Source: Euglena gracilis (lineage: Eukaryota). Taken from it: a stretch of 64,000 nt of DNA. Positions 1-23,100 of this stretch are shown here, piece after piece. The DNA is taken from the NCBI GenBank assembly GCA_039621445.1, contig CP154954.1, positions 11,133,229 to 11,197,228 of the forward strand. The letters run 5' to 3'. The notes under the pieces were generated by a model. That model made no database searches. It was given only the letters and a program-made list of their open reading frames with translations, and was not told where the DNA came from. How positions within the stretch are numbered: the first letter of the stretch is position 1; every line of letters begins with the position of its first letter. Both the position numbers and the translations under genes were made by a program.

Positions 1-2240
1 GGCCAGCGTACTGCTGCGGGGCTGTTGGGCCAGGGTGGCGGCCATGATGGCTGCACCCAGGCGTTGGCAGGCCTTTTTGGGCCCAGAACACCGCGGTAAC
101 GCGTGTTTTCCCAGACGTTGAAAACGCCCTCCTCGAACTCCTGAACGCATGCCAGAATCGGCATACGCTGTTCGAGGATGGCCTCCGGGTGACACATCAG
201 CGGGAGGAATACCTCCCGGTCGAGGGTACCGCCAAACTGTCGCCGCAAATGTTCCTCCATGCTGATATCAGCCAGGTGCCAGTTGGGGCGCAGGTGGCCG
301 AGAATCCGACGACGAGGACCCTCGATGGCGTCACCGTAATTCGGTGGCAGGCTTTCCATACCAGGCCTATCGTCCTGGGGGTCACGGAGATGTATATACA
401 CCTCCATGACATGGGTGGTCCAGGCTCGCCACCAGAACTGCTGCAGCATAAAAATACGCTGCTTTTGGACGCGGCGACTTTTGCCCTGGACATCCGGGGC
501 GTCGCGGCACACATGCATATAAGCATGCGGCGTCCCATCTGCAGGCCCGGGTTTTCCCGAGGCGGTGGAGGACTTCCGCGCACGCCTAATCCCCAGAAGT
601 CGACAGGAAATTACTGCCGGCAGTACTTACAGCAGAGGTCTTACCTCTGCGGGTAAGCCAGGGAAACGCGCTTAACGCGGAAGGTGGAGTCGTAATGGCT
701 CACCAGCCACACCTGGAGGTTGTTGCACCACAACACCTCGATCAGGCGTTCGATGTCGGGGTGTAGTGGGTAGAATTCCTACTGCACGCCGAGGGGTCCG
801 ACTGTATGAATACAGTCGTAGATTGCCTTCAGCCTTCGGGCCAACACACGCTGGTCCCGAAATCTCAACTGGTGCAGGTAACTGCGACCAGTGGAGTCGC
901 TGAAGAGACCCCAGTTCTGGCAGGGGTATCCCAGCCAAAACCAGAGCTCCCAGAAACCTGGCTGGGTTTCCAGCAAGGGTCTGCGACCTTCACCTTCGAA
1001 GGCGTACAGATCTATCCCGTAATGGAATAGTCTGACTCGGTTCTCGCTGTGGCGTAATACCACATCGATGACTGCTTGTGGAGGGGTGACGGGGCGGTTT
1101 CCTGCAATATGGTAACCATGCTGCATTCGCCAGCCTTCGTCCTCCAGCTCCTCCTTGAACCTGAGCATATGCTCAAAGTCCGAGAGGACTTCTGCTGGTT
1201 CCTCTTCCTCCTCACGTGCTGTTCCCTTACCTTTACCCTCACCCTTCCCTTTGCCGGCCACGTCTTTGCCTTCTCCCTTGCCTTTGCCCTCAGCCCTGCC
1301 TGTGTCCTTTCCCGTCTGGGGAATACCAGAGGGTCGGGCGCTCGGTGCCGCCGGAGTCGGTTCGGTTCCTTCCCATTCCATCTCTGGGGAGGGACCTGGC
1401 CGACCCGCTGCACGTCGCGGTGACGGCGTGGCTGGGGGTTGGCTAGGAGTCTGGCGTGGGCTTGGCTTCGGCGCAGGTGGTCGCGGCTCCTTCCATACCG
1501 GAGGGAGCGGCGGTGGTGGTATTGCGGCAACAGGACGGCTCATCGCCACCTGTGCCTCTGCCGGTGGTTTTCCAGCCGGGGTATCCTGGCTGGCTTCCAC
1601 CTGCATCGCCACACCGCCTTCCGCGTCCCGTGGGCTGGGTCGCCTGGGCTGTGGGGTAAGGTTCTCCGTAGTCCTGTCGCGCTGCAGGGTGGCAGGTAAT
1701 ACTGCCACACCTGCCGGGGGCTAGCCGGGTAATACCGGGGTTGCCACCCGCAGCTGCGGCTGGTACGGATGGCATGGGGTGTATCCACGGCCTGAAGGGC
1801 AGCCAGAGAGGAGTAATACCTCGACCGGTGCTCTTCAGACACGAATACTGGCTCCTGCAGGAAGTGCCGAGCAAGCTCATCCTGCTCGGTTTCCGGAGGT
1901 GCCATGTGATAGTAGGGAGTCTCCTGCCGACGGATGATATCCGCAGTCTGGACAGGAGCTGCACTGGGCGGTCGGGCTGCCACACGGTGGGGAGGTTCAT
2001 CCTCCACCACTATGGGCTCCGCCTGCCGCCGTGGCTCAACGCCAGGGACAGGGGCGACCGGTGATGCCTGTGGAATCCAGTGCATGAACATGTGTTGGAC
2101 GTATGCCTCAGGGGGCACGTCCGACTGTCCGGCTGGGAGCATGCGTGCGCCGCGCGGGTAATCCGCGTGCGTCCCGTACTGCGAGACAAATTGCTCCGCA
2201 GGCGGCTCGCGCGGCGGCATTCGCTGCGGCGAGGGCGGGC

Positions 2241-5200
2241 TGTGGGAGGGCGGCTGGCACCAGCAAAAATTAGGAAGAGCAAAGCCTAATTCACACAAAA
2301 AATTGCCATTTCACTTTGTAGGTGGCAAAAAGCTGAATACCTTGTTCAAATCGTCTTGGAAGACTTTGTTTTGATGCCTTGCATTGGGTTTTACTGGTGG
2401 AAGTTCCGGCGGAAGGATTACAAAAAAGTGGTATTTTGAAGCGCTGAAGCCAGAAAATCCAAGTGAATTCCCAGGAAAGAGACATCTCAGAAAACTCAAG
2501 GTATTCTGGTTTGCCAAGGCATGTTGTTCAAGTATCAGTGAAAGAACCATCGAAGAAAGACATTTAGAAGTGAAATGCAGCTGGGGCTGCCAGCAGCAGG
2601 AGGAGGAATCCAAGGAGGAGGAGGAGATCAACAACCTCCAGAACCTGCAGTAAGCTGTGGTATGTACTGCTGATGGACACCCTGCTCATGCTGCAGATTG
2701 TAATTTGCAGCTGGGTGTTGGATGGTTGAAAACATTTGGAACAGATTCTGTGACAGTTTTCTGCAGTTTGTGCTTTTGTTTGGGTTGGGAGTCCGTTGCT
2801 GGAAAGTTCGGGCCACGTAGCCCCTTTTGCCACACCATTTATGGGTTGGGAGGCACTTTCCAAAAGCAAATTTGGGCCCAGCAGCCCCAGGACACACCAG
2901 GCAAAATGCGCATGTCATTTCCAGAAGTTCTGTACTGCTGTGATGGGTTGGGAGGCAAATGCTTTAGCATTTTTGGGCCCAGCAGCCCCTTATGCCACAC
3001 CACACACTGTGCAACTCAGTTTCAATTGTCCATTTGTGTTGTAAATCCTTTGGGCAGTCAATGGTACCTGATTCGGCTCGGATCAATGCACACAATTTTG
3101 GGCAGAAGAAAGTTCAACATGTCAATGTCAGAAAAAGATTTGCAGAATCCATTGTCAGAATTTCAATGTCAATTTTGGATTTTTGAAAATGTTGGTTCCT
3201 GGCCCTGCCATTTTGTGGGTGCCGCTTCAAGGGGGCCCTGCCCTGGCATTCACATTTGGCAACCCGAGCCGGCCTGGGCTTCTGGGGGGCCTTCTGGGAT
3301 AACTTGTGGTTTCTGGGGGGAAACCACAGGTTCCTCAGATGGCGTCCCAAATGGGCCCAGGAGTGGGCAAGGGGGGGTCATGGAGGGTTGTGTTGTATTG
3401 GCTGGGATTGCTGGCAGCAGCTGCTTTACGCTTTAATTGGTTTTGTTGTACATTATCTCCTCGACAGCGCCCCCCCCCACCTGAAAAAAAAAACCACCCC
3501 CAGACCAAAAATCCCCAGATCAATGCCAGCCGCCTAACTTCGTAGGTTGTCGGCATTGGCCTGGGAGGGGTGTGTGGGAGGGCGGCTGGCTACAGCAAAA
3601 ATTAGGAAGAGCAAAGCCTAATTCACACAAAAATTGCCATTTTACTTTGTAGGTGGCAATAAGCTGAATACCTTGTTCAAAACGTCTTGGAAGACTTTGT
3701 TTTGATGCCTTGCATTGGGTTTTACTGGTGGAAGTTCCGGCGGAAGGATTACAAAAAAGTGGTATTTTGAAGCGCTGAAGCCAGAAAATCCAAGTGAATT
3801 CCCAGGAAAGAGACATCTCAGAAAACTCAAGGTATTCTGGTTTGCCAAGGCATGTTGTTCAAGTATCAGTGAAAGAACCATCGAAGAAAGACACTTAGAA
3901 GTGAAATGCAGCTGGGGCTGCCAGCAGCAGGAGGAGGAATCCAAGGAGGAGGAGGAGATCAACAACCTCCAGAACCTGCAGTAAGCTGTGGTATGTACTG
4001 CTGATGGACACCCTGCTCATGCTGCAGATTGTAATTTGCAGCTGGGTGTTGGATGGTTGAAAACATTTGGAACAGATTCTGTGACAGTTTTCTGCAGTTT
4101 GTGCTTTTGTTTGGGTTGGGAGTCCGTTGCTGGAAAGTTCGGGCCACGTAGCCCCTTTTGCCACACCATTTATGGGTTGGGAGGCACTTTCCAAAAGCAA
4201 ATTTGGGCCCAGCAGCCCCAGGACACACCAGGCAAAATGCGCATGTCATTTCCAGAAGTTCTGTACTGCTGTGATGGGTTGGGAGGCAAATGCTTTAGCA
4301 TTTTTGGGCCCAGCAGCCCCTTATGCCACACCACACACTGTGCAACTCAGTTTCAATTGTCCATTTGTGTTGTAAATCCTTTGGGCAGTCAATGGTACCT
4401 GATTCGGCTCGGATCAATGCACACAATTTTGGGCAGAAGAAAGTTCAACATGTCAATGTCAGAAAAAGATTTGCAGAATCCATTGTCAGAATTTCAATGT
4501 CAATTTTGGATTTTTGAAAATGTTGGTTCCTGGCCCTGCCATTTTGTGGGTGCCGCTTCAAGGGGGCCCTGCCCTGGCATTCACATTTGGCAACCCGAGC
4601 CGGCCTGGGCTTCTGGGGGGTCTTCTGGGATAACTTGTGGTTTCTGGGGGGAAACCACAGGTTCCTCAGATGGCGTCCCAAATGGGCCCAGGAGTGGGCA
4701 AGGGGGGGTCATGGAGGGTTGTGTTGTATTGGCTGGGATTGCTGGCAGCAGCTGCTTTACGCTTTAATTGGTTTTGTTGTACATTATCTCCTCGACAGCG
4801 CCACCCCCCCCCCCACCTGAAAAAAATTACCCCCCGACTGAAAAAACCCACCCCCAAACCACCCTCCGAACCCCAACTCCCCAAGGATCAATGCCAGCCG
4901 CCTAACTTCGTAGGTTGTCGGCATTGGCCTGGGAGGGGTGTGTGGGAGGGCGGCTGGCTACAGCAAAAATTAGGAAGAGCAAAGCCTAATTCACACAAAA
5001 AAATTGCCATTTTACTTTGTAGGTGGCAATAAGCTGAATACCTTGTTCAAAACGTCTTGGAAGACTTTGTTTTGATGCCTTGCATTGGGTTTTACTGGTG
5101 GAAGTTCCGGCGGAAGGAATACAAAAAAGTGGTATTTTGAAGCGCTGAAGCCAGAAAATCCAAGTGAATTCCCAGGAAAGAGACATCTCAGAAAACTCAA

Positions 5201-5955
5201 GGTATTCTGGATTTTGGATTCTGGATTTTGGGCAGAAGAAAGTTCAACATGTCAATGTCAAAAAAAAAGATTTGCAGAATCAATTGTCAGAATTTCAATG
5301 TCAGTTTTGGATTTTGAAAATGTTGGTGCCTGGCCCTGCCATTTTGTGGGTGCCGCTTCAAGGGGGCCCTGCCCTGGCATTCACAATTGGCAACCCGAGC
5401 CAGCCTGGGCTTCTGGGGGGCCTTCTGGGATAACTTGTGGTTTCTGGGGGGAAACCACAGGTTCCTCAGATGGCGTCCCAAATGGGCCCAGGAGTGGGCA
5501 AGGGGGGGTCATGGAGGATTGTGTTGTATTGGCTGGGATTGCTGGCAGCAGCTGCTTTACGCTTTAATCGGTTTTGTTGTACATTACACAGTCGACAGCG
5601 CCCCCCCCCCTAAAAAAAAAACCACCCCCAGACCAAAATCCCCAGATCAATGCCAGCCGCCCAACTTCGTGGGTTGTCGGCATTGGCCTGGGAGGGGTGT
5701 GTGGGAGGGCGGCTGGCACCAGCAAAAATTAGGAAGAGCAAAGCCTAATTCACACAAAAAATTGCCATTTCACTTTGTAGGTGGCAAAAAGCTGAATACC
5801 TTGTTCAAATCGTCTTGGAACACTTTGTTTTGATGCCTTGCATTGGGTTTTACTGGTGGAAGTTCCGGCGGAAGGATTACAAAAAAGTGGTATTTTGAAG
5901 CGCTGAAGCCAGAAAATCCAAGTGAATTCCCAGAAAAAAGACATCTCAGAAAACT
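2241..5955 (+). mobile_element. Tandem TRIM-like non-autonomous LTR element (LTR-int-LTR-int-LTR-short int-LTR), copy in the duplicated segment
   Basis: Four ~256-bp LTRs (2241-2496, 3573-3827, 4941-5197, 5700-5955) start TGTGGG and end AAAACT. PPT GGGAGGGG precedes LTR2-4. TSD GGGC (2237-2240/5956-5959). The empty site is present in element B near 46505. Confidence 0.92.
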
Positions 5956-6775
5956 GGGCGAGCAAAAATTTTCGTCATCCCAGGTGGGACATGCACAGCC
6001 TCACCTACCGGTGGGGGCGTGTGCTCACGCATATGCACGGTGTGGGATCCCACCGGCGTCTGCGTTTGCAGCATGGGCGGCACATACATGCCCAGGTCCA
6101 TCATTGTCTCGCCAGGCTCGAATCTGGAATCGGATGCCGACGAGAAATACCGTCTCCCCGTCATCAGGACTTGACCACAGGGACACCACTGAGCCACAGG
6201 CGTGTTGGCTACCACCAACAACGGAGCACAGTATGCATCCCAAAGGGCTTGCATAAAGGGCTCCGTTGGGGGTGTGCGCACATACGCATCGCCCGCTCCA
6301 ACGTCTCCATAGTGCGGAAGATCATCTCTCCCGTATACGGGGGCAGGCGCGATCTGCGCTGCGCTGGTGGCTGACGTGCCGGCTGCTGGACGGCAGATGG
6401 ATATGGTACCGCATATGCGGACCGGCTGCTGGTAGCCGCGGCGAATACCAGGGCTGAAACCCTCTCAGCATATGGGGCACCCGGAATCGGGGCCTCAGTT
6501 TACTGAGGGTACTGGGGGTATGGCTCGCCAGAAGGCTGCGGCCATGGTGGACCTGGTCCAGGTCCGCGCCCAGGCAGCAGGATGCTACCCGAACGACGAC
6601 GACAACTAAGGGTGACCTTGTTGTCAGTCGCTTTGAGTGCTGGTGCACTGAAAAAGGAAGGCTTCTATCTTAATCAAAAACTCTGCGAGAAAGATAGAGA
6701 AAGAAGGAAGTGCAGGGGGGGTATAAACGCGAAACATTCACGTAAAACACACGCATTCTCCAAAACGAAATCGTT

Positions 6776-8431
6776 TCAGAAAGTGTTTATGTTATTGCGC
6801 TTGTTCCACAGCTTCCAATCCTGCTGGATATATCCAACAAAACTGGATGCTGGCTCCCAAGTGTCCTCCTCTGGTCCATACCCTTTCCAGCGAGCTTTCC
6901 AGTAGTGCACACCCCTGTCGACCTTGTGGTCTATTATCCTATCGACCACAAAGTCGTCCGTTTCAGGTAATCTGGAACGGGGCTTGAAATACAGGCAGGG
7001 GATAGCTTTTCCGTCTGGGGGGCTTAGGTACGGTTTGAAGTCGTCCATATGTGTTGAAGTTTTGTAAAAACTATTTCCGTTTGTTGGAATGAATTTCTGT
7101 GATACGTGATTGGACTGCAGAGCGGAGTGATTCCACTTCTGCAAACCACGTTTCACAGCTGACGCTACTTCGGGCGGGTTTCTCCGAAGGGACATCCCCT
7201 ATGGCCGGAGGGTCCCGTCCGAAAACAATTTTGTACGGCGAGTGTGGTAATACCAACCCTGGCAAGGTATTGATGTAAAATAAACACCAATGAAGAACGG
7301 ATAACCAATTCTTACCCGAGTTGGCCAGTGAAAGGCGAAGCATATTGACAACGGATTTCACGGCTGCCTCGGCTCTACCATTGCCTTTCGGGCGGTATAT
7401 AATGGAAAAATGCTGCTCAATGCCGAGTAAACCGCACAAAGTTGTGAAAAACCGCGAAGAGATCAAGTGATCTTGATCACTCACAATTTCGTTCGGTAAA
7501 CCCATTAAGCAGATACATTTCTCCGGGAATATGGATGCCAGAATTTGGGCTGTCAACCCTGCTTTCCGGCATGGAATGGCTACAATGTACCCACTCAGCC
7601 GACAGACGACAACAAAAATTGTAAATTTTGTCATCTGATCCTTTGCAAGGTTCAAGTTCGAGAAAGTCCATGCAGAGGGACGTAAAAGTGTCTGGTGGTA
7701 CGGGGAAAAAGTCCATCGTACCAGGGGGGGTACCTCAGCGCGGTTTCACAGCCTGGCAAAATTGGCACCGTTGCGAAATTCGCAAACAGCGCGAATATAA
7801 ATCTTTTTCACTCAGGGTTGTGCCATATCTGCGACCCACTAGTGAAAGAAGTTTGGGGGCCCCAGGGTGACGAATGTTGTGATACCTCAAAATCACATCA
7901 TCAACCAGGTCTTGGGGTATACAATATTTATAACCGGAAACATTCCGGAAAATAAGCCGCAATGGTGATAGAGAGTAATTCTCTATGGATTCACCATTAC
8001 GAAGTCTATTCACAATGGTACTATATATAGGGTCACGCGAATATTCCCATTCGCGGAGAAATAGGGGGGTAGGAGTTTCCGTACGCGTAATGCGACGGGG
8101 TGCGGCAGTGCGTCCACGCCGGCGCCTTCCACGCAATGGTGAAATGGCGATGCTGCGATATACCCGGGAAACGGGTAGTGAACCGAGCATGTTGTCCGCA
8201 GCGTCGGATCGACGTGCGAACTGGTCAGCCTCATGGCTGCCATGAAAAGTCGCATCACCCTCATCCGGGTTCCCAGGATAATACCAGGGGGCTCGGCTGA
8301 GAGGATCCGCAACGTTTTGCGTGTGACCTGGGGTATAGATAACCACCAGGTTAAACTGGCTCAAGAACTCATGCCATCGGCATCTTCTGCCAACTGATGA
8401 CATGGCCTTGTTTAGGTCCTCTGTATACCAG
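6776..8431 (-). pseudogene. pol: Gypsy pol 3' part (RNase H end, integrase, chromodomain), duplicate copy
   Basis: HNIRH...CQFC zinc motif, MDF/SDQD/RAE catalytic triad, chromodomain FVVDRIIDHK...YWKARWKGYGPEEDTWEP; frameshifted. Confidence 0.88.
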
Positions 8432-8444: not shown

Positions 8445-10844
8445 CCAAAACTCGCAAAATGGGTTTTTCACCTATCTGCGGTGGCTTATGGGGTATAAGA
8501 TATTATAGCCTACTGGGGAAAATGGGGCTGGCAGGTTTCCTTGCCAAGCAAACCCATCCACCCAGTTTGGGTGTGCCCAAGGCACTTGGTTTGGGTCCAT
8601 GGGCATTCCAGGAAAACCCATGGGGGGGTGTGGAAGGAGGGGGCCTCTGACCAGTCAAACCTGGGCAGGGCGCATGGCCAGTCAATCCTGACCACGCAAA
8701 AGGAAATCCTACTCTACAAAACCAACTGCCGGCGACAGCATTTGTCCGGGGGGAGAGTAGAGAGGAGTGGGTGGGTTGGCTTAGGCCAGAAAAGTGCTGT
8801 CTGGCAGCCTTAAGGCCTCAAACGGGCCGAGAACAAAACAAAGGGAAAGAAACGAGGCCGTCGGCCCTGTGCGCTGCGTGTCGCACGCCCGCGAGAGGGG
8901 AGAGGGGAGAGGGGTGTGCATGCATGCGCACGGAATCCTGCACATGGCAGCATCCCGGTGGGAACTTACTAGCGGCGAATACCGCAAAGGGTCTTCGAAG
9001 GGGTTGTTCGGGCGAATACCCAAAAAGGGTGTCAGGCGAATACCTGACGAGGGTGCTGAAAGACGCCGCATTGGCGCTCACAGACACCTCACCTGCCTTT
9101 ATCGGCTGGACGTTCGCGCACCTCACGCCAGTAGTCGTGTTGGGGGTCCCCTAATGGGTCCTCAACCAACTCCAGTTGGCGTGGGGAACGCGGCACTGAT
9201 TCACTCCGGATGGTGTTGAGCTCCGGATCGTTGGCATCAAAGGAAGGGGTCTCCCAGTCCTTGATCCAATTATCCGGCAGCTTCTCCCTGGTACGTTCAG
9301 CATGATGCTGAAGATACCGTTGGAGCTGCTCCCAGAAAATTCTGGGCAGCATCACCGGCCAGATGATGTAATTCATCCGGGGGTGATTCGCAGGCACCTG
9401 CGGGGGCATCCCCGGGGTCTGCTTGAAGTTGATGTCATACATCCACCTCGCTGTCCGAGCTCTTGCGGTATGGGGCCGTAATACAGCCGCCAACCAACCT
9501 CTGAAGTCCACCAAATCGTGTTCTTCAGGATTCCACAGTGGCAAGGCGTATTCACCATGTTGACGCTTTGAGAACAGGGTGTAATCCTGTGTGTCCCAGT
9601 CCCGATCGGCCAAGAGGTAAGGCATTCTTACCTTGGCGTGTTCCTCGACGGCTAGGCGCATTGCCCCAGCGTCGATCTGGAACTCCCGGGCCATTCCCGT
9701 GTGGCGGTAGCTTTCTATCAGTCGGAAGTCGGAGTGTTTCAGGCGGCCTTCCACCTGTTCGTACTCCTTCTTCCACTTCTCCATTGGCTCCCAGTGGTGG
9801 GGGACAATGGTGGTGACTGCTCCATCAGCAGTCTGCACGAACTTGGCCCCTATACAGTTGATGCACAAGACAGGGATATCCCTGTCGTGAGCATTCTCAC
9901 TGTAGGAGTAGTTCAAGCTGTGCTTCAAGGCGGTCAGGCACTCGCCACATACGAGCGCCACACAGTTCGGCACATATGCCCTGTGATGGAACCACGAGGA
10001 TTGCACCTGCCGCTTGCACACATGCACAAGCGGTTGGTTGTGCCGCACATGGTGGCACACGGTGCACGTCCAGGCAAAGGACGTGCCGTGCTGGAAATCC
10101 AACACGCAGTCCTCACCAAAGTACTGTGCCAGTACTCTGGGTGAGCGCCTATTCCAGAATGTCCAGGTATGTTCCGGGACATAGTGGAAAGGTTCTCCTC
10201 GGACGAAGAGGGGCTGAATCCATCGATTCAGTGACCCTTTCTGGTGCCTAATAGCAGCCAGTTTCTTCGTCCCTCTCTTCCACGGTGCCTAGTCTGGTCA
10301 GGATATCCTGAGTCCAGAGCTGGGCATCCGCAGACACAGGAAGTGAAGCAGGTTCATCCTGCTCCTCATCCGTCGATCCGGCGGAAGACTGGGCCTGTCG
10401 ACCACGAGCCTTACCTTTCGGTTTGCTCTGGCCGTACCCGGACGATGCAACGGCCGAATAGTCGTGCATTGTCGTAGGGCCTTTCGGCTGTCCGCCAGTC
10501 TGACCTCCAGCGCCACCTTTCGGTGGTGGTTTCCCATCACCGCCTTTGGCAGGGGGCTTACAGGGTGCAGCACCCAGTTTGCCTCCTTTCGGCTTCGCAC
10601 TCCCGGAATCAGGAGGCGATGCCTGCGGCTTACTCCTGGTATCAGGAGCCGATGGTGCCGGAGTAGACGCTTGCCGTCTGGGCGAAGCGGGCATGATGGC
10701 CGCTGCGTCACGCGTGACGCCCCGAGGAGTGGGCACTCGTTCCTGGGGTTGTTCAGTCTGCCGCCGCCGAGCAGGTTCATCCCGTCCGACGGGGCGTGGC
10801 ACTGTGGTCGTTACCGGAATCGGTGCTTCCACAGGTGCTGATAC

Positions 10845-12516
10845 TGTGGGCGGCGCCAGGTTTAAAATTTAAAAACCCAAAATTGAATTAGGAGGCGCCT
10901 ATCCTAATTACAAAATTTCTGTTTTTGCAGCTGCAACTGTCCTGAACTCTTTGACTCAAGGAAGGCCTGAGCGCCAGATGAAGATTTCAAGTCTTGGTTT
11001 GTGCCATGCTGAAGGAAAGTGAGTGCTGCTGGAAAGGAAAAGTTTTCAAGTTTGACCACCAGTGGGTACAAGGAGACACTCAGAAAACACAAAGAGTTCA
11101 ATTGTTGCTCAAGGCCTGGAGGCCAAAAGTCAGCCAGTTTGGCCAGAAGAAATGGACATTTCAGAAAGTGTCAAGTCAGTGATTGTCAATGATGAAAAAA
11201 TCTGGGAAGATCAATGCTGCAGAAAACTGGGCTGGAAATCTGAGCTGTATGCAGTAAAATTTCAGTATGTTGTTGAAATCATTGACAGATTGGGATTGAA
11301 GACCCCCAACATTGATGCATTCAGTTTGGAAGAAAGCAAGAGATTCAAATGCTGGTGGGGACCTGGGTCACAATTTGTGGAAGATTCCTTCACAGTGAAG
11401 TGGACACATTCCATTGTTGGATTGTTGTGGGCAAATCCCCCCTTCAGCCTCATTGCAAATGTCATCCGCAAGCTGAAGAAGGATCATGGTCATGCGGTGT
11501 TGGTTGTCCCAAAGTGGGTTACTGCCCCCTGGTGGGAAGATCTTCAAGACATTGTTGTCAGAATGCTGGAGTATCCTTGTGCCACGCCGTTGTTTTTGAG
11601 TTGGTTGGGGCAGGGTTCACAGTCCCCCCCACAAAATGGCCAGTACAAGTGGCATTTGTCTGTGGAACGATAAGTCAATGTTTCAAATTGGCAAAAGTTC
11701 CCAATTCAATTTCAAGTTCAGCAAAAAGGAGAGTGAGGAGGCAAAAGATGAAAGGAGGGTCCTCCCCACAAGTGCCCCTTAGGCTCCAGGTCGGCACAGG
11801 GGACAGCCCAAATTTCAGTGATTCAAGTGGTGAAGTCTCTTTGCAATGATTGTGTGTTCAATCTGAGCCCCCTCCTTGCAAAGTGGGCTTTGAGTTTGTG
11901 CTGGCCAGTGGCCCAGGCCCAGGGCCCAGGTCGGAGAACCGCTACAAGGGGGCCTACCCACAGGCCCTGGGACTCCCCCTGGCAGCCCCCCACTGGCCCC
12001 CTCATCCCAGGAGTGCCCTGGGGAAGGTTGGGAGGGGGACCAACCTTTCCCAGGGTGCCCCAAGGGCTCTGGGGTGGGCTGGTGGCCCTGTGGCCCCCCT
12101 ACTTGTGCTGGACATTTTTGGACTAAATCCCTGTCAGCTGTATTATATCCCTGACTCAGCGTTCAAAAATTTAAAAAAAACAAATTTCAGCCGCCCCCCC
12201 CAAAAAAGGCCAATTTTGGCGCCGCAAAAAATTGCCGAAGGCAGTGGGCACGAAGTGTCCAGAGAGGGGTGTGTGGGCGGCGCCAGGTTTAAAATTTAAA
12301 AACCCAAAATTGAATTGGGAGGCGCCTATCCTAATTACAAAATTTCTGTTTTTGCAGCTGAAACTGTCCTGAACTCTTTGACTCAAGGAAGGCCTGAGCG
12401 CCAGATGAAGATTTCAAGTCTTGGATTGTGCTATGCTGAAGGAAAGTGGGTGCTGCTGGAAAGGAAAAGTTTTCAAGTTTGACCCCCAGTGGGTACAAGG
12501 AGACACTCAGAAAACA
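10845..12516 (+). mobile_element. Miniature LTR element (1672 bp) carrying only an adenine MTase ORF
   Basis: 245-bp LTRs 10845-11089 and 12272-12516 (TG...CA); PPT AGAGAGGGG 12261-12269; TSD ATAC 10841-10844/12517-12520; empty site in B near 43310. Confidence 0.94.
11152..11849 (+). CDS. DNA N6-adenine methyltransferase (Dam/DIRS-type), with one apparent frameshift in a T run at ~11596
   Basis: NIDAFS...DSFTVKW...LLWANPPFSLIANVIRKLKKDHGHAVLVVPKWVTAPWW with intact NPPF at 11434-11445. The C-terminus FELVGAGFTVPP continues in another frame to 11849. Confidence 0.82.
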
Positions 12517-15500
12517 ATACACCCGGAAACTCTCCCATTGTCCGTGGGACGGCAGGGATCCTGCGGGGTGTCGGTGGTCGTGGGGGTATTTCTTCCACTT
12601 CCATTTTGACATCCGGTCGAGGAGGTTGATCCTCCACAACCGCTGGCGCAGGTGCTACGGCAGGTTGATCCTCCGTTGTAGCCGTTGCGACAGATGTCTC
12701 TGTCGGTTGGGGTTCATCCCCTGAAGATGGTTGCGCTGCTGCCGGAGGTGGGGTGCCGGGACACCGATATCCGGCGTCTCCACAACCTCAGTGGCAGAGC
12801 TTGATACTACGCCTCCACCTCGTGGCGTCAGTGCAGAAGCCACGGCAGTAATGCCAGTGACGACGGCGCCGAGCACACGGCCTCCTAATGAGGTGCGTGC
12901 TGTGGGGCTGGCAGGTTCTTCGAGGGTATCCTCGATGACCATACCAGTCACCTCAGCTTCAGGCTCAGCCTCCGGGAGAGGCGTTGCAGCCACAGGTATA
13001 TCCCCTGTGGGTGCTTCGTCTGGCCGAGGCTGTGCCGGGGCAGGCAGAGAAGCGTAGAGGATAGCCTCCACGTTCTCGCCTTCCTCCTGAGGGAGTTCCT
13101 CGTCTCCACCTGCCGGTGGACAGACGGGAGCCGCCGCCGCGGGGGCCGGGGAGACTGATCGTTCCCCTGCCGCCCGTGGGACAGAGACGAAGGATACAGC
13201 CGTCCCTGTCGGAGACAGCGGCGCTGCCTCCAGGATAGTGACGGAGGTGCTGCGGTCGCGATCCTCTCGCCGCGTAATCGCGGTGGTGGAAGCGACTGAA
13301 GCCTCACGTCTCCTTCGCGCCAGAGGTTCATCCTCCGGGGCGATGAAGGCGCGCAGATCCTCGGGCGAACGCGGATCGTCGGGGTGCCATCGGCATCCCT
13401 GAGCATCCGCCAGCCTGTAAAAGGCCAGCGTACTGCTGCGGGGCTGTTGGGCCAGGGTGGCGGCCATGATGGCTGCACCCAGGCGTTGGCAGGCCTTTTT
13501 GGGCCCAGAACACCGCGGTAACGCGTGTTTTCCCAGACGTTGAAAACGCCCTCCTCGAACTCCTGAACGCATGCCAGAATCGGCATACGCTGTTCGAGGA
13601 TGGCCTCCGGGTGACACATCAGCGGGAGGAATACCTCCCGGTCGAGGGTACCGCCAAACTGTCGCCGCAAATGTTCCTCCATGCTGATATCAGCCAGGTG
13701 CCAGTTGGGGCGCAGGTGGCCGAGAATCCGACGACGAGGACCCTCGATGGCGTCACCGTAATTCGGTGGCAGGCTTTCCATACCAGGCCTATCGTCCTGG
13801 GGGTCACGGAGATGTATATACACCTCCATGACATGGGTGGTCCAGGCTCGCCACCAGAACTGCTGCAGCATAAAAATACGCTGCTTTTGGACGCGGCGAC
13901 TTTTGCCCTGGACATCCGGGGCGTCGCGGCACACATGCATATAAGCATGCGGCGTCCCATCTGCAGGCCCGGGTTTTCCCGAGGCGGTGGAGGACTTCCG
14001 CGCACGCCTAATCCCCAGAAGTCGACAGGAAATTACTGCCGGCAGTACTTACAGCAGAGGTCTTACCTCTGCGGGTAAGCCAGGGAAACGCGCTTAACGC
14101 GGAAGGTGGAGTCGTAATGGCTCACCAGCCACACCTGGAGGTTGTTGCACCACAACACCTCGATCAGGCGTTCGATGTCGGGGTGTAGTGGGTAGAATTC
14201 CTACTGCACGCCGAGGGGTCCGACTGTATGAATACAGTCGTAGATTGCCTTCAGCCTTCGGGCCAACACACGCTGGTCCCGAAATCTCAACTGGTGCAGG
14301 TAACTGCGACCAGTGGAGTCGCTGAAGAGACCCCAGTTCTGGCAGGGGTATCCCAGCCAAAACCAGAGCTCCCAGAAACCTGGCTGGGTTTCCAGCAAGG
14401 GTCTGCGACCTTCACCTTCGAAGGCGTACAGATCTATCCCGTAATGGAATAGTCTGACTCGGTTCTCGCTGTGGCGTAATACCACATCGATGACTGCTTG
14501 TGGAGGGGTGACGGGGCGGTTTCCTGCAATATGGTAACCATGCTGCATTCGCCAGCCTTCGTCCTCCAGCTCCTCCTTGAACCTGAGCATATGCTCAAAG
14601 TCCGAGAGGACTTCTGCTGGTTCCTCTTCCTCCTCACGTGCTGTTCCCTTACCTTTACCCTCACCCTTCCCTTTGCCGGCCACGTCTTTGCCTTCTCCCT
14701 TGCCTTTGCCCTCAGCCCTGCCTGTGTCCTTTCCCGTCTGGGGAATACCAGAGGGTCGGGCGCTCGGTGCCGCCGGAGTCGGTTCGGTTCCTTCCCATTC
14801 CATCTCTGGGGAGGGACCTGGCCGACCCGCTGCACGTCGCGGTGACGGCGTGGCTGGGGGTTGGCTAGGAGTCTGGCGTGGGCTTGGCTTCGGCGCAGGT
14901 GGTCGCGGCTCCTTCCATACCGGAGGGATCGGCGGTGGTATTGCGGCAACAGGACGGCTCATCGCCACCTGTGCCTCTGCCGGTGGTTTTCCAGCCGGGG
15001 TATCCTGGCTGGCTTCCACCTGCATCGCCACACCGCCTTCCGCGTCCCGTGGGCTGGGTCGCCTGGGCTGTGGGGTAAGGTTCTCCGTAGTCCTGTCGCG
15101 CTGCAGGGTGGCAGGTAATACTGCCACACCTGCCGGGGGCTAGCCGGGTAATACCGGGGTTGCCACCCGCAGCTGCGGCTGGTACGGATGGCATGGGGTG
15201 TATCCACGGCCTGAAGGGCAGCCAGAGAGGAGTAATACCTCGACCGGTGCTCTTCAGACACGAATACTGGCTCCTGCAGGAAGTGCCGAGCAAGCTCATC
15301 CTGCTCGGTTTCCGGAGGTGCCATGTGATAGTAGGGAGTCTCCTGCCGACGGATGATATCCGCAGTCTGGACAGGAGCTGCACTGGGCGGTCGGGCTGCC
15401 ACACGGTGGGGAGGTTCATCCTCCACCACTATGGGCTCCGCCTGCCGCCGTGGCTCAACGCCAGGGACAGGGGCGACCGGTGATGCCTGTGGAATCCAGT

Positions 15501-15659
15501 GCATGAACATGTGTTGGACGTATGCCTCAGGGGGCACGTCCGACTGTCCGGCTGGGAGCATGCGTGCGCCGCGCGGGTAATCCGCGTGCGTCCCGTACTG
15601 CGAGACAAATTGCTCCGCAGGCGGCTCGCGCGGCGGCATTCGCTGCGGCGAGGGCGGGC

Positions 15660-18600
15660 TGTGGGAGGGCGGCTGGCACCAGCAAAAATTAGGAAGAGCA
15701 AAGCCTAATTCACACAAAAAATTGCCATTTCACTTTGTAGGTGGCAAAAAGCTGAATACCTTGTTCAAATCGTCTTGGAAGACTTTGTTTTGATGCCTTG
15801 CATTGGGTTTTACTGGTGGAAGTTCCGGCGGAAGGATTACAAAAAAGTGGTATTTTGAAGCGCTGAAGCCAGAAAATCCAAGTGAATTCCCAGGAAAGAG
15901 ACATCTCAGAAAACTCAAGGTATTCTGGTTTGCCAAGGCATGTTGTTCAAGTATCAGTGAAAGAACCATCGAAGAAAGACATTTAGAAGTGAAATGCAGC
16001 TGGGGCTGCCAGCAGCAGGAGGAGGAATCCAAGGAGGAGGAGGAGGAGATCAACAACCTCCAGAACCTGCAGTAAGCTGTGGTATGTACTGCTGATGGAC
16101 ACCCTGCTCATGCTGCAGATTGTAATTTGCAGCTGGGTGTTGGATGGTTGAAAACATTTGGAACAGATTCTGTGACAGTTTTCTGCAGTTTGTGCTTTTG
16201 TTTGGGTTGGGAGTCCGTTGCTGGAAAGTTCGGGCCACGTAGCCCCTTTTGCCACACCATTTATGGGTTGGGAGGCACTTTCCAAAAGCAAATTTGGGCC
16301 CAGCAGCCCCAGGACACACCAGGCAAAATGCGCATGTCATTTCCAGAAGTTCTGTACTGCTGTGATGGGTTGGGAGGCAAATGCTTTAGCATTTTTGGGC
16401 CCAGCAGCCCCTTATGCCACACCACACACTGTGCAACTCAGTTTCAATTGTCCATTTGTGTTGTAAATCCTTTGGGCAGTCAATGGTACCTGATTCGGCT
16501 CGGATCAATGCACACAATTTTGGGCAGAAGAAAGTTCAACATGTCAATGTCAGAAAAAGATTTGCAGAATCCATTGTCAGAATTTCAATGTCAATTTTGG
16601 ATTTTTGAAAATGTTGGTTCCTGGCCCTGCCATTTTGTGGGTGCCGCTTCAAGGGGGCCCTGCCCTGGCATTCACATTTGGCAACCCGAGCCGGCCTGGG
16701 CTTCTGGGGGGCCTTCTGGGATAACTTGTGGTTTCTGGGGGGAAACCACAGGTTCCTCAGATGGCGTCCCAAATGGGCCCAGGAGTGGGCAAGGGGGGGT
16801 CATGGAGGGTTGTGTTGTATTGGCTGGGATTGCTGGCAGCAGCTGCTTTACGCTTTAATTGGTTTTGTTGTACATTATCTCCTCGACAGCGCCCCCCCCA
16901 CCTGAAAAAAAAAAAACCACCCCCAGACCAAAAATCCCCAGATCAATGCCAGCCGCCTAACTTCGTAGGTTGTCGGCATTGGCCTGGGAGGGGTGTGTGG
17001 GAGGGCGGCTGGCTACAGCAAAAATTAGGAAGAGCAAAGCCTAATTCACACAAAAAATTGCCATTTTACTTTGTAGGTGGCAATAAGCTGAATACCTTGT
17101 TCAAAACGTCTTGGAAGACTTTGTTTTGATGCCTTGCATTGGGTTTTACTGGTGGAAGTTCCGGCGGAAGGATTACAAAAAAGTGGTATTTTGAAGCGCT
17201 GAAGCCAGAAAATCCAAGTGAATTCCCAGGAAAGAGACATCTCAGAAAACTCAAGGTATTCTGGTTTGCCAAGGCATGTTGTTCAAGTATCAGTGAAAGA
17301 ACCATCGAAGAAAGACACTTAGAAGTGAAATGCAGCTGGGGCTGCCAGCAGCAGGAGGAGGAATCCAAGGAGGAGGAGGAGATCAACAACCTCCAGAACC
17401 TGCAGTAAGCTGTGGTATGTACTGCTGATGGACACCCTGCTCATGCTGCAGATTGTAATTTGCAGCTGGGTGTTGGATGGTTGAAAACATTTGGAACAGA
17501 TTCTGTGACAGTTTTCTGCAGTTTGTGCTTTTGTTTGGGTTGGGAGTCCGTTGCTGGAAAGTTCGGGCCACGTAGCCCCTTTTGCCACACCATTTATGGG
17601 TTGGGAGGCACTTTCCAAAAGCAAATTTGGGCCCAGCAGCCCCAGGACACACCAGGCAAAATGCGCATGTCATTTCCAGAAGTTCTGTACTGCTGTGATG
17701 GGTTGGGAGGCAAATGCTTTAGCATTTTTGGGCCCAGCAGCCCCTTATGCCACACCACACACTGTGCAACTCAGTTTCAATTGTCCATTTGTGTTGTAAA
17801 TCCTTTGGGCAGTCAATGGTACCTGATTCGGCTCGGATCAATGCACACAATTTTGGGCAGAAGAAAGTTCAACATGTCAATGTCAGAAAAAGATTTGCAG
17901 AATCCATTGTCAGAATTTCAATGTCAATTTTGGATTTTTGAAAATGTTGGTTCCTGGCCCTGCCATTTTGTGGGTGCCGCTTCAAGGGGGCCCTGCCCTG
18001 GCATTCACATTTGGCAACCCGAGCCGGCCTGGGCTTCTGGGGGGTCTTCTGGGATAACTTGTGGTTTCTGGGGGGAAACCACAGGTTCCTCAGATGGCGT
18101 CCCAAATGGGCCCAGGAGTGGGCAAGGGGGGGTCATGGAGGGTTGTGTTGTATTGGCTGGGATTGCTGGCAGCAGCTGCTTTACGCTTTAATTGGTTTTG
18201 TTGTACATTATCTCCTCGACAGCGCCCCCCCCCCACCTGAAAAAAAAAAACCACCCCCAGACCAAAAATCCCCAGATCAATGCCAGCCGCCTAACTTCGT
18301 AGGTTGTCGGCATTGGCCTGGGAGGGGTGTGTGGGAGGGCGGCTGGCTACAGCAAAAATTAGGAAGAGCAAAGCCTAATTCACACAAAAAATTGCCATTT
18401 TACTTTGTAGGTGGCAATAAGCTGAATACCTTGTTCAAAACGTCTTGGAAGACTTTGTTTTGATGCCTTGCATTGGGTTTTACTGGTGGAAGTTCCGGCG
18501 GAAGGAATACAAAAAAGTGGTATTTTGAAGCGCTGAAGCCAGAAAATCCAAGTGAATTCCCAGGAAAGAGACATCTCAGAAAACTCAAGGTATTCTGGAT

Positions 18601-19343
18601 TTTGGATTCTGGATTTTGGGCAGAAGAAAGTTCAACATGTCAATGTCAAAAAAAAAGATTTGCAGAATCAATTGTCAGAATTTCAATGTCAGTTTTGGAT
18701 TTTGAAAATGTTGGTGCCTGGCCCTGCCATTTTGTGGGTGCCGCTTCAAGGGGGCCCTGCCCTGGCATTCACAATTGGCAACCCGAGCCAGCCTGGGCTT
18801 CTGGGGGGCCTTCTGGGATAACTTGTGGTTTCTGGGGGGAAACCACAGGTTCCTCAGATGGCGTCCCAAATGGGCCCAGGAGTGGGCAAGGGGGGGTCAT
18901 GGAGGATTGTGTTGTATTGGCTGGGATTGCTGGCAGCAGCTGCTTTACGCTTTAATCGGTTTTGTTGTACATTACACAGTCGACAGCGCCCCCCCCCCTA
19001 AAAAAAAAACCACCCCCAGACCAAAATCCCCAGATCAATGCCAGCCGCCCAACTTCGTGGGTTGTCGGCATTGGCCTGGGAGGGGTGTGTGGGAGGGCGG
19101 CTGGCACCAGCAAAAATTAGGAAGAGCAAAGCCTAATTCACACAAAAAATTGCCATTTCACTTTGTAGGTGGCAAAAAGCTGAATACCTTGTTCAAATCG
19201 TCTTGGAACACTTTGTTTTGATGCCTTGCATTGGGTTTTACTGGTGGAAGTTCCGGCGGAAGGATTACAAAAAAGTGGTATTTTGAAGCGCTGAAGCCAG
19301 AAAATCCAAGTGAATTCCCAGAAAAAAGACATCTCAGAAAACT
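15660..19343 (+). mobile_element. Tandem TRIM-like non-autonomous LTR element (4 LTRs) inserted in ORF3 of element A
   Basis: Same structure as 2241-5955. TSD GGGC at 15656-15659 and 19344-19347. No recognisable protein in the internal region. Confidence 0.92.
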
Positions 19344-20163
19344 GGGCGAGCAAAAATTTTCGTCATCCCAGGTGGGACATGCACAGCCTCACCTACCGGT
19401 GGGGGCGTGTGCTCACGCATATGCACGGTGTGGGATCCCACCGGCGTCTGCGTTTGCAGCATGGGCGGCACATACATGCCCAGGTCCATCATTGTCTCGC
19501 CAGGCTCGAATCTGGAATCGGATGCCGACGAGAAATACCGTCTCCCCGTCATCAGGACTTGACCACAGGGACACCACTGAGCCACAGGCGTGTTGGCTAC
19601 CACCAACAACGGAGCACAGTATGCATCCCAAAGGGCTTGCATAAAGGGCTCCGTTGGGGGTGTGCGCACATACGCATCGCCCGCTCCAACGTCTCCATAG
19701 TGCGGAAGATCATCTCTCCCGTATACGGGGGCAGGCGCGATCTGCGCTGCGCTGGTGGCTGACGTGCCGGCTGCTGGACGGCAGATGGATATGGTACCGC
19801 ATATGCGGACCGGCTGCTGGTAGCCGCGGCGAATACCAGGGCTGAAACCCTCTCAGCATATGGGGCACCCGGAATCGGGGCCTCAGTTTACTGAGGGTAC
19901 TGGGGGTATGGCTCGCCAGAAGGCTGCGGCCATGGTGGACCTGGTCCAGGTCCGCGCCCAGGCAGCAGGATGCTACCCGAACGACGACGACAACTAAGGG
20001 TGACCTTGTTGTCAGTCGCTTTGAGTGCTGGTGCACTGAAAAAGGAAGGCTTCTATCTTAATCAAAAACTCTGCGAGAAAGATAGAGAAAGAAGGAAGTG
20101 CAGGGGGGGTATAAACGCGAAACATTCACGTAAAACACACGCATTCTCCAAAACGAAATCGTT

Positions 20164-23100
20164 TCAGAAAGTGTTTATGTTATTGCGCTTGTTCCACAGC
20201 TTCCAATCCTGCTGGATATATCCAACAAAACTGGATGCTGGCTCCCAAGTGTCCTCCTCTGGTCCATACCCTTTCCAGCGAGCTTTCCAGTAGTGCACAC
20301 CCCTGTCGACCTTGTGGTCTATTATCCTATCGACCACAAAGTCGTCCGTTTCAGGTAATCTGGAACGGGGCTTGAAATACAGGCAGGGGATAGCTTTTCC
20401 GTCTGGGGGGCTTAGGTACGGTTTGAAGTCGTCCATATGTGTTGAAGTTTTGTAAAAACTATTTCCGTTTGTTGGAATGAATTTCTGTGATACGTGATTG
20501 GACTGCAGAGCGGAGTGATTCCACTTCTGCAAACCACGTTTCACAGCTGACGCTACTTCGGGCGGGTTTCTCCGAAGGGACATCCCCTATGGCCGGAGGG
20601 TCCCGTCCGAAAACAATTTTGTACGGCGAGTGTGGTAATACCAACCCTGGCAAGGTATTGATGTAAAATAAACACCAATGAAGAACGGATAACCAATTCT
20701 TACCCGAGTTGGCCAGTGAAAGGCGAAGCATATTGACAACGGATTTCACGGCTGCCTCGGCTCTACCATTGCCTTTCGGGCGGTATATAATGGAAAAATG
20801 CTGCTCAATGCCGAGTAAACCGCACAAAGTTGTGAAAAACCGCGAAGAGATCAAGTGATCTTGATCACTCACAATTTCGTTCGGTAAACCCATTAAGCAG
20901 ATACATTTCTCCGGGAATATGGATGCCAGAATTTGGGCTGTCAACCCTGCTTTCCGGCATGGAATGGCTACAATGTACCCACTCAGCCGACAGACGACAA
21001 CAAAAATTGTAAATTTTGTCATCTGATCCTTTGCAAGGTTCAAGTTCGAGAAAGTCCATGCAGAGGGACGTAAAAGTGTCTGGTGGTACGGGGAAAAAGT
21101 CCATCGTACCAGGGGGGGTACCTCAGCGCGGTTTCACAGCCTGGCAAAATTGGCACCGTTGCGAAATTCGCAAACAGCGCGAATATAAATCTTTTTCACT
21201 CAGGGTTGTGCCATATCTGCGACCCACTAGTGAAAGAAGTTTGGGGGCCCCAGGGTGACGAATGTTGTGATACCTCAAAATCACATCATCAACCAGGTCT
21301 TGGGGTATACAATATTTATAACCGGAAACATTCCGGAAAATAAGCCGCAATGGTGATAGAGAGTAATTCTCTATGGATTCACCATTACGAAGTCTATTCA
21401 CAATGGTACTATATATAGGGTCACGCGAATATTCCCATTCGCGGAGAAATAGGGGGGTAGGAGTTTCCGTACGCGTAATGCGACGGGGTGCGGCAGTGCG
21501 TCCACGCCGGCGCCTTCCACGCAATGGTGAAATGGCGATGCTGCGATATACCCGGGAAACGGGTAGTGAACCGAGCATGTTGTCCGCAGCGTCGGATCGA
21601 CGTGCGAACTGGTCAGCCTCATGGCTGCCATGAAAAGTCGCATCACCCTCATCCGGGTTCCCAGGATAATACCAGGGGGCTCGGCTGAGAGGATCCGCAA
21701 CGTTTTGCGTGTGACCTGGGGTATAGATAACCACCAGGTTAAACTGGCTCAAGAACTCATGCCATCGGCATCTTCTGCCAACTGATGACATGGCCTTGTT
21801 TAGGTCCTCTGTATACCAGTGTTGAAGGCTCTCATGATCCGTCAACACGAGTATCTGGACAAAGCTGCTGGCTATCCAGCTGCGGAATGTCTGGAGAATA
21901 AGCACAATGGTATATGTCTCCTTTTCGCGAATGCTCCATTTAACCTGTCCTTTCCCGTTGTCGCCCTGTAGCTTCCTGCTGAAGAAAGACACAGGTCGGA
22001 GTTCATTCGCCGCATTATGCAGGCTAAGAACCCCGCCAACAGCGTAATCGCTGCTGTCGACTTCCAGGACATATTGTTTATATGGATCCGCGATATCGAG
22101 AACCACGTTCTCGAGCAGCAAGTCCTTGATTTTATTCAAGGCCTCGCGCATTTGGTCATCCCAAATGACTTTTGCGTTATCGGGTGTCCGATTTTTGAGT
22201 TGTCGGGTTAGGGGTACCGCGATTTTTTGCGAAATCTTTCATGTAAACCGCGTAATGTTGGGCTAATCCCAAAAATCCCTTTAAATGCGTTAAGGTCTTA
22301 ATGACATCAGGAGTCCATTTCTTAATGGCCTCCATCTTACTGGGTGCCGCTTTACGCTGCCCGTTGCTCAGGATATGCCCGCAAAACTTAATAATTTTGC
22401 AAAACAGGTGCATTTTGGAACCCTTCACAAAAAGCGCATGCTTTTTGAACGCAGATAATACCACCCGCACATCGTGATAGTGCGGTTCGAGGATAGCCTC
22501 GCCCGATTTCGCGGATGGCGGTTGGGTTCCCACCAGTACATCATCGATGTACACCAGAGCAAACGGTAAATCGCGCAAAACCCACTCTATCATGCGTTGA
22601 AACATGGCTGGGCCCATTCCTTACACCCATGGGAGTACCGTCCATTGGTACACACCCTTGGATGTCACGAATGCCGTGTACGGTTGCGAATCAGGATGCA
22701 AACGCATCTGATGGAAACCGTCTTCCAGATCAAAGATTGAGCACAACCGGTTATCCGATTGTCTGGTGATCAAATCTTTGATCAGCGGTAACGGGAAGGG
22801 GTCATCCTTCGTTTGGGAGTTCAGGTACCGGTAATCCAGCACTAGTCTCTACTTCTTTTGACCAGACTGGTCAGCGGGTTTGGGCACCACAAAAACCTGT
22901 GATGTCCATTCGCTCTTGGAAGGGATAATCCACTTCCGCTGGATGGGTTTCTCAATCATCTCGTTGAGAGCTTGTTCGCGTTCACCCGAACAACGGAAGA
23001 ATTTACGGTGCATGGGTTTAGCGCCATCCTTGAGCTCGATTTTGCAAACACCGAACGGGCCGCGAATCGCGGGGTCGATGTCGCTGGCGTATACTGGGTT

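Follow-up and report, generated by a model that had tools for sequence, protein, structure and literature searches.

A 64,000-nt stretch of the Euglena gracilis genome (contig CP154954.1; hereafter the window, meaning the whole stretch analysed) contains at positions 10845-12516 a complete retroelement bounded by long terminal repeats (LTRs). It is 1,672 bp long with an interior of 1,182 bp, and is here called the mini element. It is probably a dead copy of a highly repeated, non-autonomous, Ty3-like euglenid LTR family whose cargo is solely a Dam-like adenine methyltransferase (DAM), an assessment that includes the proposed steps of its propagation. From translation and alignment, the family's only gene is best read as a stand-alone PF05869-like adenine methyltransferase of ~230 residues with a basic C-terminal tail. 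The mini element as a whole is best read as a novel variant of two known kinds, the DAM-bearing LTR retrotransposons (DAM-LTRs) and the non-autonomous LTR elements with a single open reading frame (ORF).

The boundaries of the element and its target site are defined by the following features:

10841-10844, no strand: left target-site duplication, ATAC; the empty paralogous site has a single 4-mer, GCAC, here
10845-11089, plus strand: 5' LTR, 245 bp, TGT...ACA, 43.7% GC (direct-repeat search and blastn)
11850-12260, plus strand: non-coding 3' internal region, 59% GC, resembling no retroelement protein tried
12261-12269, plus strand: polypurine tract AGAGAGGGG, 2 nt ahead of the 3' LTR (letters read directly)
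12272-12516, plus strand: 3' LTR, 245 bp (direct-repeat search and blastn)
12517-12520, no strand: right target-site duplication, ATAC (letters read directly)
43310-43313, no strand: comparison site outside the element, the empty paralogous target site GCAC in a further copy of a GC-rich host repeat

Both LTRs open with TGT and close with ACA, giving the TG..CA ends, and they are identical at 239 of 245 positions (97.6%), the six mismatches comprising three transitions and three transversions (Kimura two-parameter distance 0.025). By blastn within the window, the left flank (9942-10840) was matched to 42418-43309 at 95% and the right flank (12519-13570) to 43312-44346 at 89%. These flank paralogues are contiguous at 43309/43312, with one GCAC where the filled site reads ATAC-element-ATAC; therefore, the insertion is shown independently of the LTR, duplication and polypurine motifs. 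By the 4-bp duplication and the empty paralogue, the mini element was inserted as one 1.67-kb piece. In addition, the empty-site joint (10840>12517, with four letters fitting either side) was found in one contig of a DNA sequencing run (X1, see below). The first-pass annotation had described a complete 1.67-kb element with 245-bp LTRs, a polypurine tract and a 4-bp duplication, and this description now gains the empty paralogous site at 43310-43313.

The coding part of the mini element is divided over two frames:

11152-11595, plus strand: Dam-like ORF, first frame, from its ATG, with IDAFS, WWGPGS, WANPPF (11428-11445) and VLVVPKW (translation and alignment)
11593-11597, plus strand: five consecutive T against three in open-frame relatives, the two additional T causing the frameshift (contigs and the database protein P0001)
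11598-11849, plus strand: Dam-like ORF, second frame, with a conserved W, a C-G-x4-C pair, the basic tail AKRRVRRQKMK and TGA at 11847-11849 (alignment)

Remnants of gag, protease (PR), reverse transcriptase (RT), RNase H (RH), integrase (IN) or chromodomain were sought in the mini element by tblastn at E 1e-3 using as queries 11 database proteins that carry PR, RT or DNA methyltransferase (DNMT) parts and seven ORFs of the window's large elements (18 in all), and none was found; the sole match below that value was the Dam-like region. Together with Pfam, this upholds the earlier claim that the element lacks gag, RT and integrase and carries only a Dam-like protein with intact WANPPF. Both the NPP-aromatic motif and the conserved Asp of the D-A-F region are present in the window ORF (WANPPF, IDAFS).

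A database protein from another collection, P0001 (284 residues), is 93% identical to the window ORF and reads unbroken through PLFELVGAGF...SLQ to the stop. A HMMER search with P0001 returned 1,408 cluster representatives at E <= 0.001, 237 of them at <= 1e-10, and NPP[FYW] is present in 137 of the best 150 relatives. Residues N148, P149, P150 and D108 are invariant in all 16 aligned sequences. The Pfam Dam model matches 13 of 16 close relatives at E <= 0.01 (best 9e-9), and by transitive homology the window ORF is a putative member of PF05869. Of the relatives, 83 match along almost the full profile; in 80 of these the protein ends no more than 60 residues from the domain, and 53 have the look of complete stand-alone proteins, in a search whose profile was built from stand-alone forms and so favours stand-alone matches. 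The contigs behind ten of these relatives span 1.0-6.6 kb, mostly 1.0-1.7 kb. In a 104-row tree of DAM domains, P0001 clusters with the stand-alone proteins P0005, P0006 and P0008, to which it is 37-50% identical (SH-aLRT 93). Furthermore, a word-index protein search gave three relatives of near length and one longer, and a metagenome scan with the stand-alone DAM alignment gave four loci from 464 pattern matches, 30-31% identical, none with direct repeats of at least 60 nt. A further group of relatives (P0010, P0031, P0036, P0050 and P0057) was observed to combine DAM and a cytosine-methyltransferase-like FxGxG motif in a single protein; P0057 runs from DAM through a DNMT-like part to a DTGA protease motif, the layout named 'EpiLTR' in the preprint discussed below.

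An AlphaFold model built on the 16-sequence alignment had a mean pLDDT of 73.5, with values of 87-98 in the 10-residue blocks covering 81-200 and 134 residues at 90 or above. The first Foldseek rank was PCIF1 (6irw_B, E 3.4e-6), the cap-specific mRNA N6-adenosine methyltransferase also known as CAPAM. VIA-align, which is independent of Foldseek, gave PCIF1 (6irx) a Z score of 11.5 with a root-mean-square deviation of 3.2 over 146 residues, followed by the rRNA adenine methyltransferases KsgA, Erm and DIMT1 (8.0-8.7), T4 Dam (7.7), E. coli Dam (7.4) and M.TaqI (7.2). A sequence search of the PDB with the profile found no match at E 1, and the best ESM Atlas scores, 0.87, lie below the level of more than a lead. 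The fold and motif of a class-I N6-adenine methyltransferase are thus supported in the predicted model, where the methyltransferase fold on which the first-pass annotation had staked its reading is present together with NPPF (pLDDT 87-98, PCIF1 Z 11.5). PCIF1 is the best structural match to the mini-element protein and shares its NPPF catalytic motif, whereas it is only 12-15% identical in sequence, much larger with extra domains, acts on RNA and has no sequence-level relation in the PDB searches.

The size and state of the family were gauged from sequencing runs, of which 20 of 24 hold part of the stretch and 10 hold at least half of its sampled words. Four of the 24 were compared by contigs over a 2,551-nt stretch; X1 and X8 are DNA runs, X16 is RNA by guess, and X1 may be the same sample as the window. 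Contigs on this stretch numbered 3,824 in X1 and 1,573 in X8, mostly short and in all identity bands. Over 11389-11584 one X8 contig matches the window letter for letter, and its word depth, which is not a copy number, is 3,428.6 in a run of 798 million letters. Such a depth would be possible for a single-copy sequence only in a genome of ~0.2 Mb, and the mini element is therefore many-copy. If the host genome is 2.37 Gb, as given for E. gracilis (PMC11252322), the copy number inferred from contig depth would be of the order of ten thousand.

Open-frame members were also found. At 11593, two T are left out in the single X8 contig (3,597.7 of 3,597.7 depth) and in the X16 contig (69.9 of 69.9), and P0001 differs from the window copy at nine residues, of which, by a reading of the sequences, just one lies within the core domain. 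P0001 and the X8 and X16 contigs, all without the extra T, therefore establish that an open frame exists in the family. Two points raised by the first-pass annotation are thereby addressed: the single-copy outcome is contradicted by DNA contigs from two runs at word depths in the thousands, and the frame is open across the T run in at least these three members.

The window copy itself is, judged by its letters, a decaying member of this family. At six listed ORF sites nearly every X1 and X8 contig disagrees with the window, and all six changes are missense; six missense and no silent private changes, set against 544 non-synonymous and 149 synonymous sites, show no departure from neutrality. 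With the two extra T and these six private substitutions, the window copy is predicted to make the protein no longer. The suggestion that the frameshift might be a consensus error was not borne out, at least as something confined to the window assembly: every X1 contig across 11593 has five T, X1 possibly being the window's own sample. The five-T form is a real, apparently abundant variant. Programmed frameshifting at the T run was considered and rejected, since G-UUU-UUG does not conform to the canonical slippery heptamer and the family has copies with an open frame. A separate run, X20 (a metatranscriptome labelled as leaf litter), holds a 238-nt contig over 11595-11827 with six differences to the second frame of the ORF, as well as contigs on the flanking repeat of the mini element.

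The family seems to be expressed. In X16, 10930-12051 is covered by a 1,128-nt contig with a depth of 69.9, where the left flank has 5-12 and the U3 part of the LTR ~2; the DNA runs show the reverse, with flanks 5- to 10-fold deeper than the mini element; X16 has no cover over 12120-12205 and beyond 12292. The contig opens at 10930, right after tgtttttgcag, and is preceded by nine loose letters, TTTTTTTTC. With the g at 10930, these letters equal the last ten of the E. gracilis spliced leader, whose 3' end is given as TATTTTTTTTCG (PMC4778363). The string TATTTTTTTTCG is not present anywhere in the 64-kb window. From this one contig and its nine letters, in a run whose RNA nature is a guess, the X16 sequence is proposed to be a leader-joined mRNA, and its host a euglenid. 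A summary-level literature search found no description of spliced-leader-joined RNA of an LTR retrotransposon. The proposed acceptor and the priming signals lie close together:

10920-10930, plus strand: pyrimidine tract and AG (tgtttttgcag), proposed spliced-leader acceptor (X16 contig start, leader match)
10943-10953, plus strand: proposed self-primer TGAACTCTTTG, LTR positions 99-109 (complementarity; helix extendable to GCAAC at 10933-10937)
11090-11100, plus strand: primer-binding site (PBS) CAAAGAGTTCA, from the first base past the 5' LTR (exact reverse complement of 10943-10953)

The PBS does not begin with TGG, the start required for a tRNA primer, and no tRNA genes were found in the 64-kb window. 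Instead, all 11 nt are complementary to the LTR segment at offset 0, so that the 3' end of the primer pairs with the first post-LTR base, and the helix goes on at GTTGC (11104-11108), which pairs with GCAAC (10933-10937). A complement of at least 11 nt at offset 0 arose in three of 20,000 dinucleotide shuffles of the LTR (P ~1.5e-4), and the pairing is present in the minimum-free-energy and centroid folds alike. Tf1 and Tj1 are documented to prime themselves, and the same is predicted for Tcn1 chromoviruses (PMC4600332, PMC6317226); the Tf1-type geometry is found in the pair 11090-11100 and 10943-10953. The likeness to Tf1, Sushi and Tcn1, as these sources present them, consists in a PBS that is unlike a tRNA 3' end, pairs with a 5' portion of the element's LTR transcript and adjoins the end of the LTR (PMC4600332, PMC6317226). 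The Tf1 primer consists of the transcript's first 11 nt, whereas in the mini element the apparent RNA 5' end, at the leader junction, precedes the primer by 13 nt. Of the six positions at which the LTRs differ, one (10934 versus 12361) was observed to fall in the extended primer helix, where the 5' LTR reads GCAAC and the 3' LTR GAAAC.

Several known systems share part of this architecture. The DIRS1-like methyltransferase domain belongs to the same DAM family, and P0004 has the DIRS-like order RT-RH-DAM. Unlike DIRS elements, which have a tyrosine recombinase and are not known to make a target duplication, the mini element has TG..CA LTRs and a 4-bp duplication. The TRIMs (miniature retrotransposons with terminal repeats), the large retrotransposon derivatives (LARDs) and the TR-GAG elements resemble it in having LTRs, a PBS, a polypurine tract and a target duplication without RT or integrase, and, presumably, in being mobilised in trans. 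TR-GAG elements keep one ORF, the structural gene gag, whereas the mini element retains an accessory enzyme and no gag. The TRIM interior is described as short and non-coding (PMC6934838); here 1,182 bp encode a ~230-residue protein, and the TRIM label given in the first-pass annotation does not fit an element that is coding and 1.67 kb long. Rfam searches of the mini element at E up to 1 gave four sub-threshold matches to miRNA and viral motifs and nothing else, and the whole 64-kb window gave no match at gathering scores; with no hammerhead among the matches on the mini element, identity as a retrozyme was ruled out.

The nearest known kind was described in a preprint of May 2026, which reports DIRS and LTR retrotransposons that carry DAM, some of them chromodomain forms, together with E. 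gracilis 'EpiLTRs' that combine DAM and DNMT (10.64898/2026.05.21.726589). The mini element shares with these an Asn-Pro-Pro DAM domain on Ty3-like LTR elements and E. gracilis as a host, and the chromodomain forms resemble the window's large elements. As presented in the preprint, however, DAM-LTRs are autonomous polyproteins with RT, and the class is defined by DAM together with RT or other retrotransposon features in the ORF or its vicinity; DAM is the sole gene of the 1.67-kb non-autonomous mini element, which falls outside this definition; the RTs neighbouring it belong to unrelated insertions. The term 'non-autonomous' has no occurrence in the main text of the preprint, whose supplements might list such elements, and a summary-level literature search found no description of a non-autonomous element with an adenine methyltransferase. 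The preprint also reports more N6-methyladenine (6mA) on DAM-LTR copies in three species, and it states that 46.1% of DAM sequences are without transposable-element features, which it ascribes to fragmentation and degenerate remnants (10.64898/2026.05.21.726589).

A propagation cycle can be proposed from these components. RT, RNase H and integrase would be supplied in trans by an autonomous relative outside the window. A translatable mRNA would arise through spliced-leader trans-splicing at the AG at 10929-10930 within the 5' LTR, and minus-strand synthesis would be self-primed in the fashion of Tf1, with LTR positions 10943-10953 folding onto 11090-11100 and the primer 3' end abutting the last LTR base. 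The protein may then enter the nucleus or the particle and N6-methylate adenines on cDNA, RNA:DNA intermediates or new insertions, which is the least secure step. Methylated copies would come to resemble the host's 6mA-marked permissive chromatin, in line with the model that the preprint puts forward for DAM-LTR insertions (10.64898/2026.05.21.726589).

A number of findings weigh against this account. The two T are present in all X1 contigs over 11593 (0 of a summed depth of 14,916.7 without them), and although contigs do not give the relative amounts of the three-T and five-T forms, copies with a dead ORF are therefore abundant, and the element does not depend on the ORF in cis. The all-missense private changes fit neutral decay of the window copy, and the X16 copy, while open in frame, is cut short by a stop at 11751, losing its last 32 codons, which form a disordered tail of low confidence in the model. 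The leader match amounts to nine letters in a single contig from a run labelled RNA by guess, and in total energy the 5' region folds no better than shuffles do (z -0.48). No autonomous partner with matching LTR or PBS was found within the 64-kb window. With respect to the protein, Pfam Dam scores 15.9 bits on the window ORF (E 0.011) where the gathering threshold is 28.1, and gives no match to P0001 at E 0.01. The stand-alone status of the relatives comes from gene calls on 1-1.7-kb contigs without DNA context, and in the DAM-domain tree stand-alone and polyprotein labels are intermixed, with 28 changes for 62 stand-alone rows; on its present branching, the tree cannot date the stand-alone state beyond the small P0001 clade. 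Finally, the preprint reports that related eukaryotic DAMs expressed in dam- E. coli brought no gain of 6mA (10.64898/2026.05.21.726589).

This last result bears on the alternative that survives best, a somewhat unlikely one, in which the protein is not a writer of genomic 6mA and instead methylates RNA (its own RNA or a cap-adjacent adenosine) or RNA:DNA hybrids, or binds without catalysis. The structural ranking points in this direction, since PCIF1, an NPPF enzyme that acts on the mRNA cap adenosine, tops the matches by ~3 Z units and the rRNA adenine methyltransferases rank second, above T4 and E. coli Dam; in addition, a hybrid substrate is raised by the authors of the preprint themselves (10.64898/2026.05.21.726589). 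A shared fold does not fix the substrate, however. The link by sequence family runs to the phage and bacterial DNA Dam of PF05869, and the 6mA excess on DAM-LTR copies in three species speaks for DNA (10.64898/2026.05.21.726589).

It is unlikely, too, that the family is an accidental deletion derivative, in which a DAM segment was left by chance, copies parasitise an autonomous source, the ORF is open only through youth and the protein does nothing for the element. The dominance of the five-T form among the X1 contigs, the premature stop of the X16 copy, the decay of the window copy by missense changes only and an LTR divergence of just 2.5% can all be read in this way, and the position of DAM between PR and RT in P0111 and P0134 makes a deletion origin easy to imagine. 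Yet no trace of flanking PR, RT or DNMT sequence remains, and the ORF runs from an ATG of its own through a short leader to a stop, with a conserved Cys pair and a basic tail. P0005, P0006 and P0008, only 37-50% identical, are laid out alike, and just one of the nine residue differences between P0001 and the window copy lies in the core domain. The extreme deletion derivative proposed in the first-pass annotation may still stand as an origin, though the nearest relatives, at most 50% identical, share the stand-alone layout as called from their sequences, which argues against a recent accident.

The reading of a DAM-only non-autonomous family may be extended further. Stand-alone DAM mini-elements could form a long-lived, selected 'epigenetic satellite' class that keeps the enzyme, borrows RT and integrase, uses a leader-capped mRNA whose 5' end past the junction doubles as self-primer, and accounts for a sizeable part of the 46% orphan DAM genes. 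This generalisation is speculative and, on the evidence above, rather unlikely. If it were true, DAM alone would give a transmission advantage separable from everything else in the retrotransposon. Adenine methyltransferases carried by retrotransposons were described only very recently; their function is unproven and heterologous assays are negative. An element reduced to LTRs and one gene, present in many copies and seemingly expressed, offers the cleanest case in nature for the enzyme being of importance to the element. It also provides a compact construct with which to probe whether DNA, RNA or a hybrid is the substrate, whether its own copies carry 6mA and how expression is affected. Furthermore, it is suggested that some 'orphan' DAM genes are the cargo of small non-autonomous elements missed by domain-based pipelines. 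A self-primer beside a spliced-leader acceptor raises the question of how LTR elements define RNA ends in a trans-splicing host.

The large elements of the window carry DAM-like domains of a different form, listed here for comparison:

50515-50793, minus strand: HPP-type DAM-like domain of a large gag-PR-DAM-RT-RH-IN-chromodomain element, LWMHPP, 28% identity to the mini ORF, E 2e-8
23493-23807, minus strand: HPP-type DAM-like domain copy, LWMHPL, 24% identity, E 2e-6
38949-39275, minus strand: HPP-type DAM-like domain copy, LWIHPP, 25% identity, E 1e-5

The alignment of the mini ORF with the HPP-type domain, reported in the first-pass annotation, was recovered at 24-28% identity (E 2e-8 to 1e-5), with LWANPPF in the mini element where the large elements read LWMHPP, LWMHPL and LWIHPP. 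These minus-strand elements contain a CCHC gag, a protease-like stretch (e.g., 51869-52057, by similarity to P0111), the DAM-like domain, RT and RNase H, an integrase zinc-binding domain and a chromodomain, and by this predicted domain content they are chromovirus-type DAM-LTRs. The closest database relative of their DAM domain, P0134, retains NPPF, and because of this the His of the HPP elements is the derived state. Among the best 150 relatives, one other HPP form was observed, P0095.

Proximity of the two kinds invites the idea that the mini element supplies an active NPPF enzyme in trans to the HPP chromodomain elements, which mobilise it in return. The elements lie side by side in the window, and the Asn-to-His change is common to two large-element subfamilies only ~70% identical in DNA, implying a long life without the Asn. 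Nevertheless, such an exchange is highly improbable, and the first-pass suggestion of service to helpers with a changed motif finds no footing for these neighbours. The mini LTR and interior show no nucleotide similarity to anything else in the 64-kb window, and no LTR or PBS is shared. Among the large elements only element D (29538-40828) has clear LTRs; its LTR is a different one, and a self-primer of at least 8 nt is absent. The DAM domains are only 24-28% identical, and the mini element sits in a GC-rich repeat, not in or beside the large elements by any visible rule. Hardly credible is a domesticated host DAM gene that merely lies between two solo LTRs or direct repeats: the ORF is stand-alone, seemingly trans-spliced like host mRNAs and endowed with a nuclear-type basic tail, but the perfect 4-bp duplication and empty paralogue record a 1.67-kb unit inserted whole, the PBS and polypurine tract abut the LTRs, and thousands of contigs in two runs mark a dispersed repeat.

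The 64-kb window is a nest of repeats. The GC-rich (59-64%) repeat that hosts the insertion occupies 9942-10840, 12519-15659 and 41006-46511, at a depth in the DNA runs 5- to 10-fold above that of the mini element, and has long minus-strand open frames of up to 1,083 residues without Pfam match. Nested in element D is a further minus-strand LTR element (31734-37817) with LTRs of ~610 bp that are 92.5% identical, a duplication of 5 bp (GTATC) and a primer site of the TGG type; Pfam gave no match on the four of its ORFs that were searched. Pfam searches of 10 further window ORFs (two flanking the insertion, one from the tandem array described next and seven elsewhere) gave nothing useful. The tandem array (2215-5955 and 15634-19343) has a period of ~1.33 kb and open 259-residue frames (e.g., 2657-3436) without Pfam match; two copies of the large repeat contain the array, and the third, at ~46510, does not. 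An 8.4-kb duplication links 1-8431 with 13423-21819 at 99.4% identity; its first copy stops abruptly at 8431, and the sequence beyond matches 41006 onward, which may reflect a rearrangement or an assembly join. Lastly, head-to-head inverted gag-side copies of a large element (51737-55287 and 55288-59511) meet at 55287/55288 with no spacer, making this junction palindromic with arms of ~4 kb.

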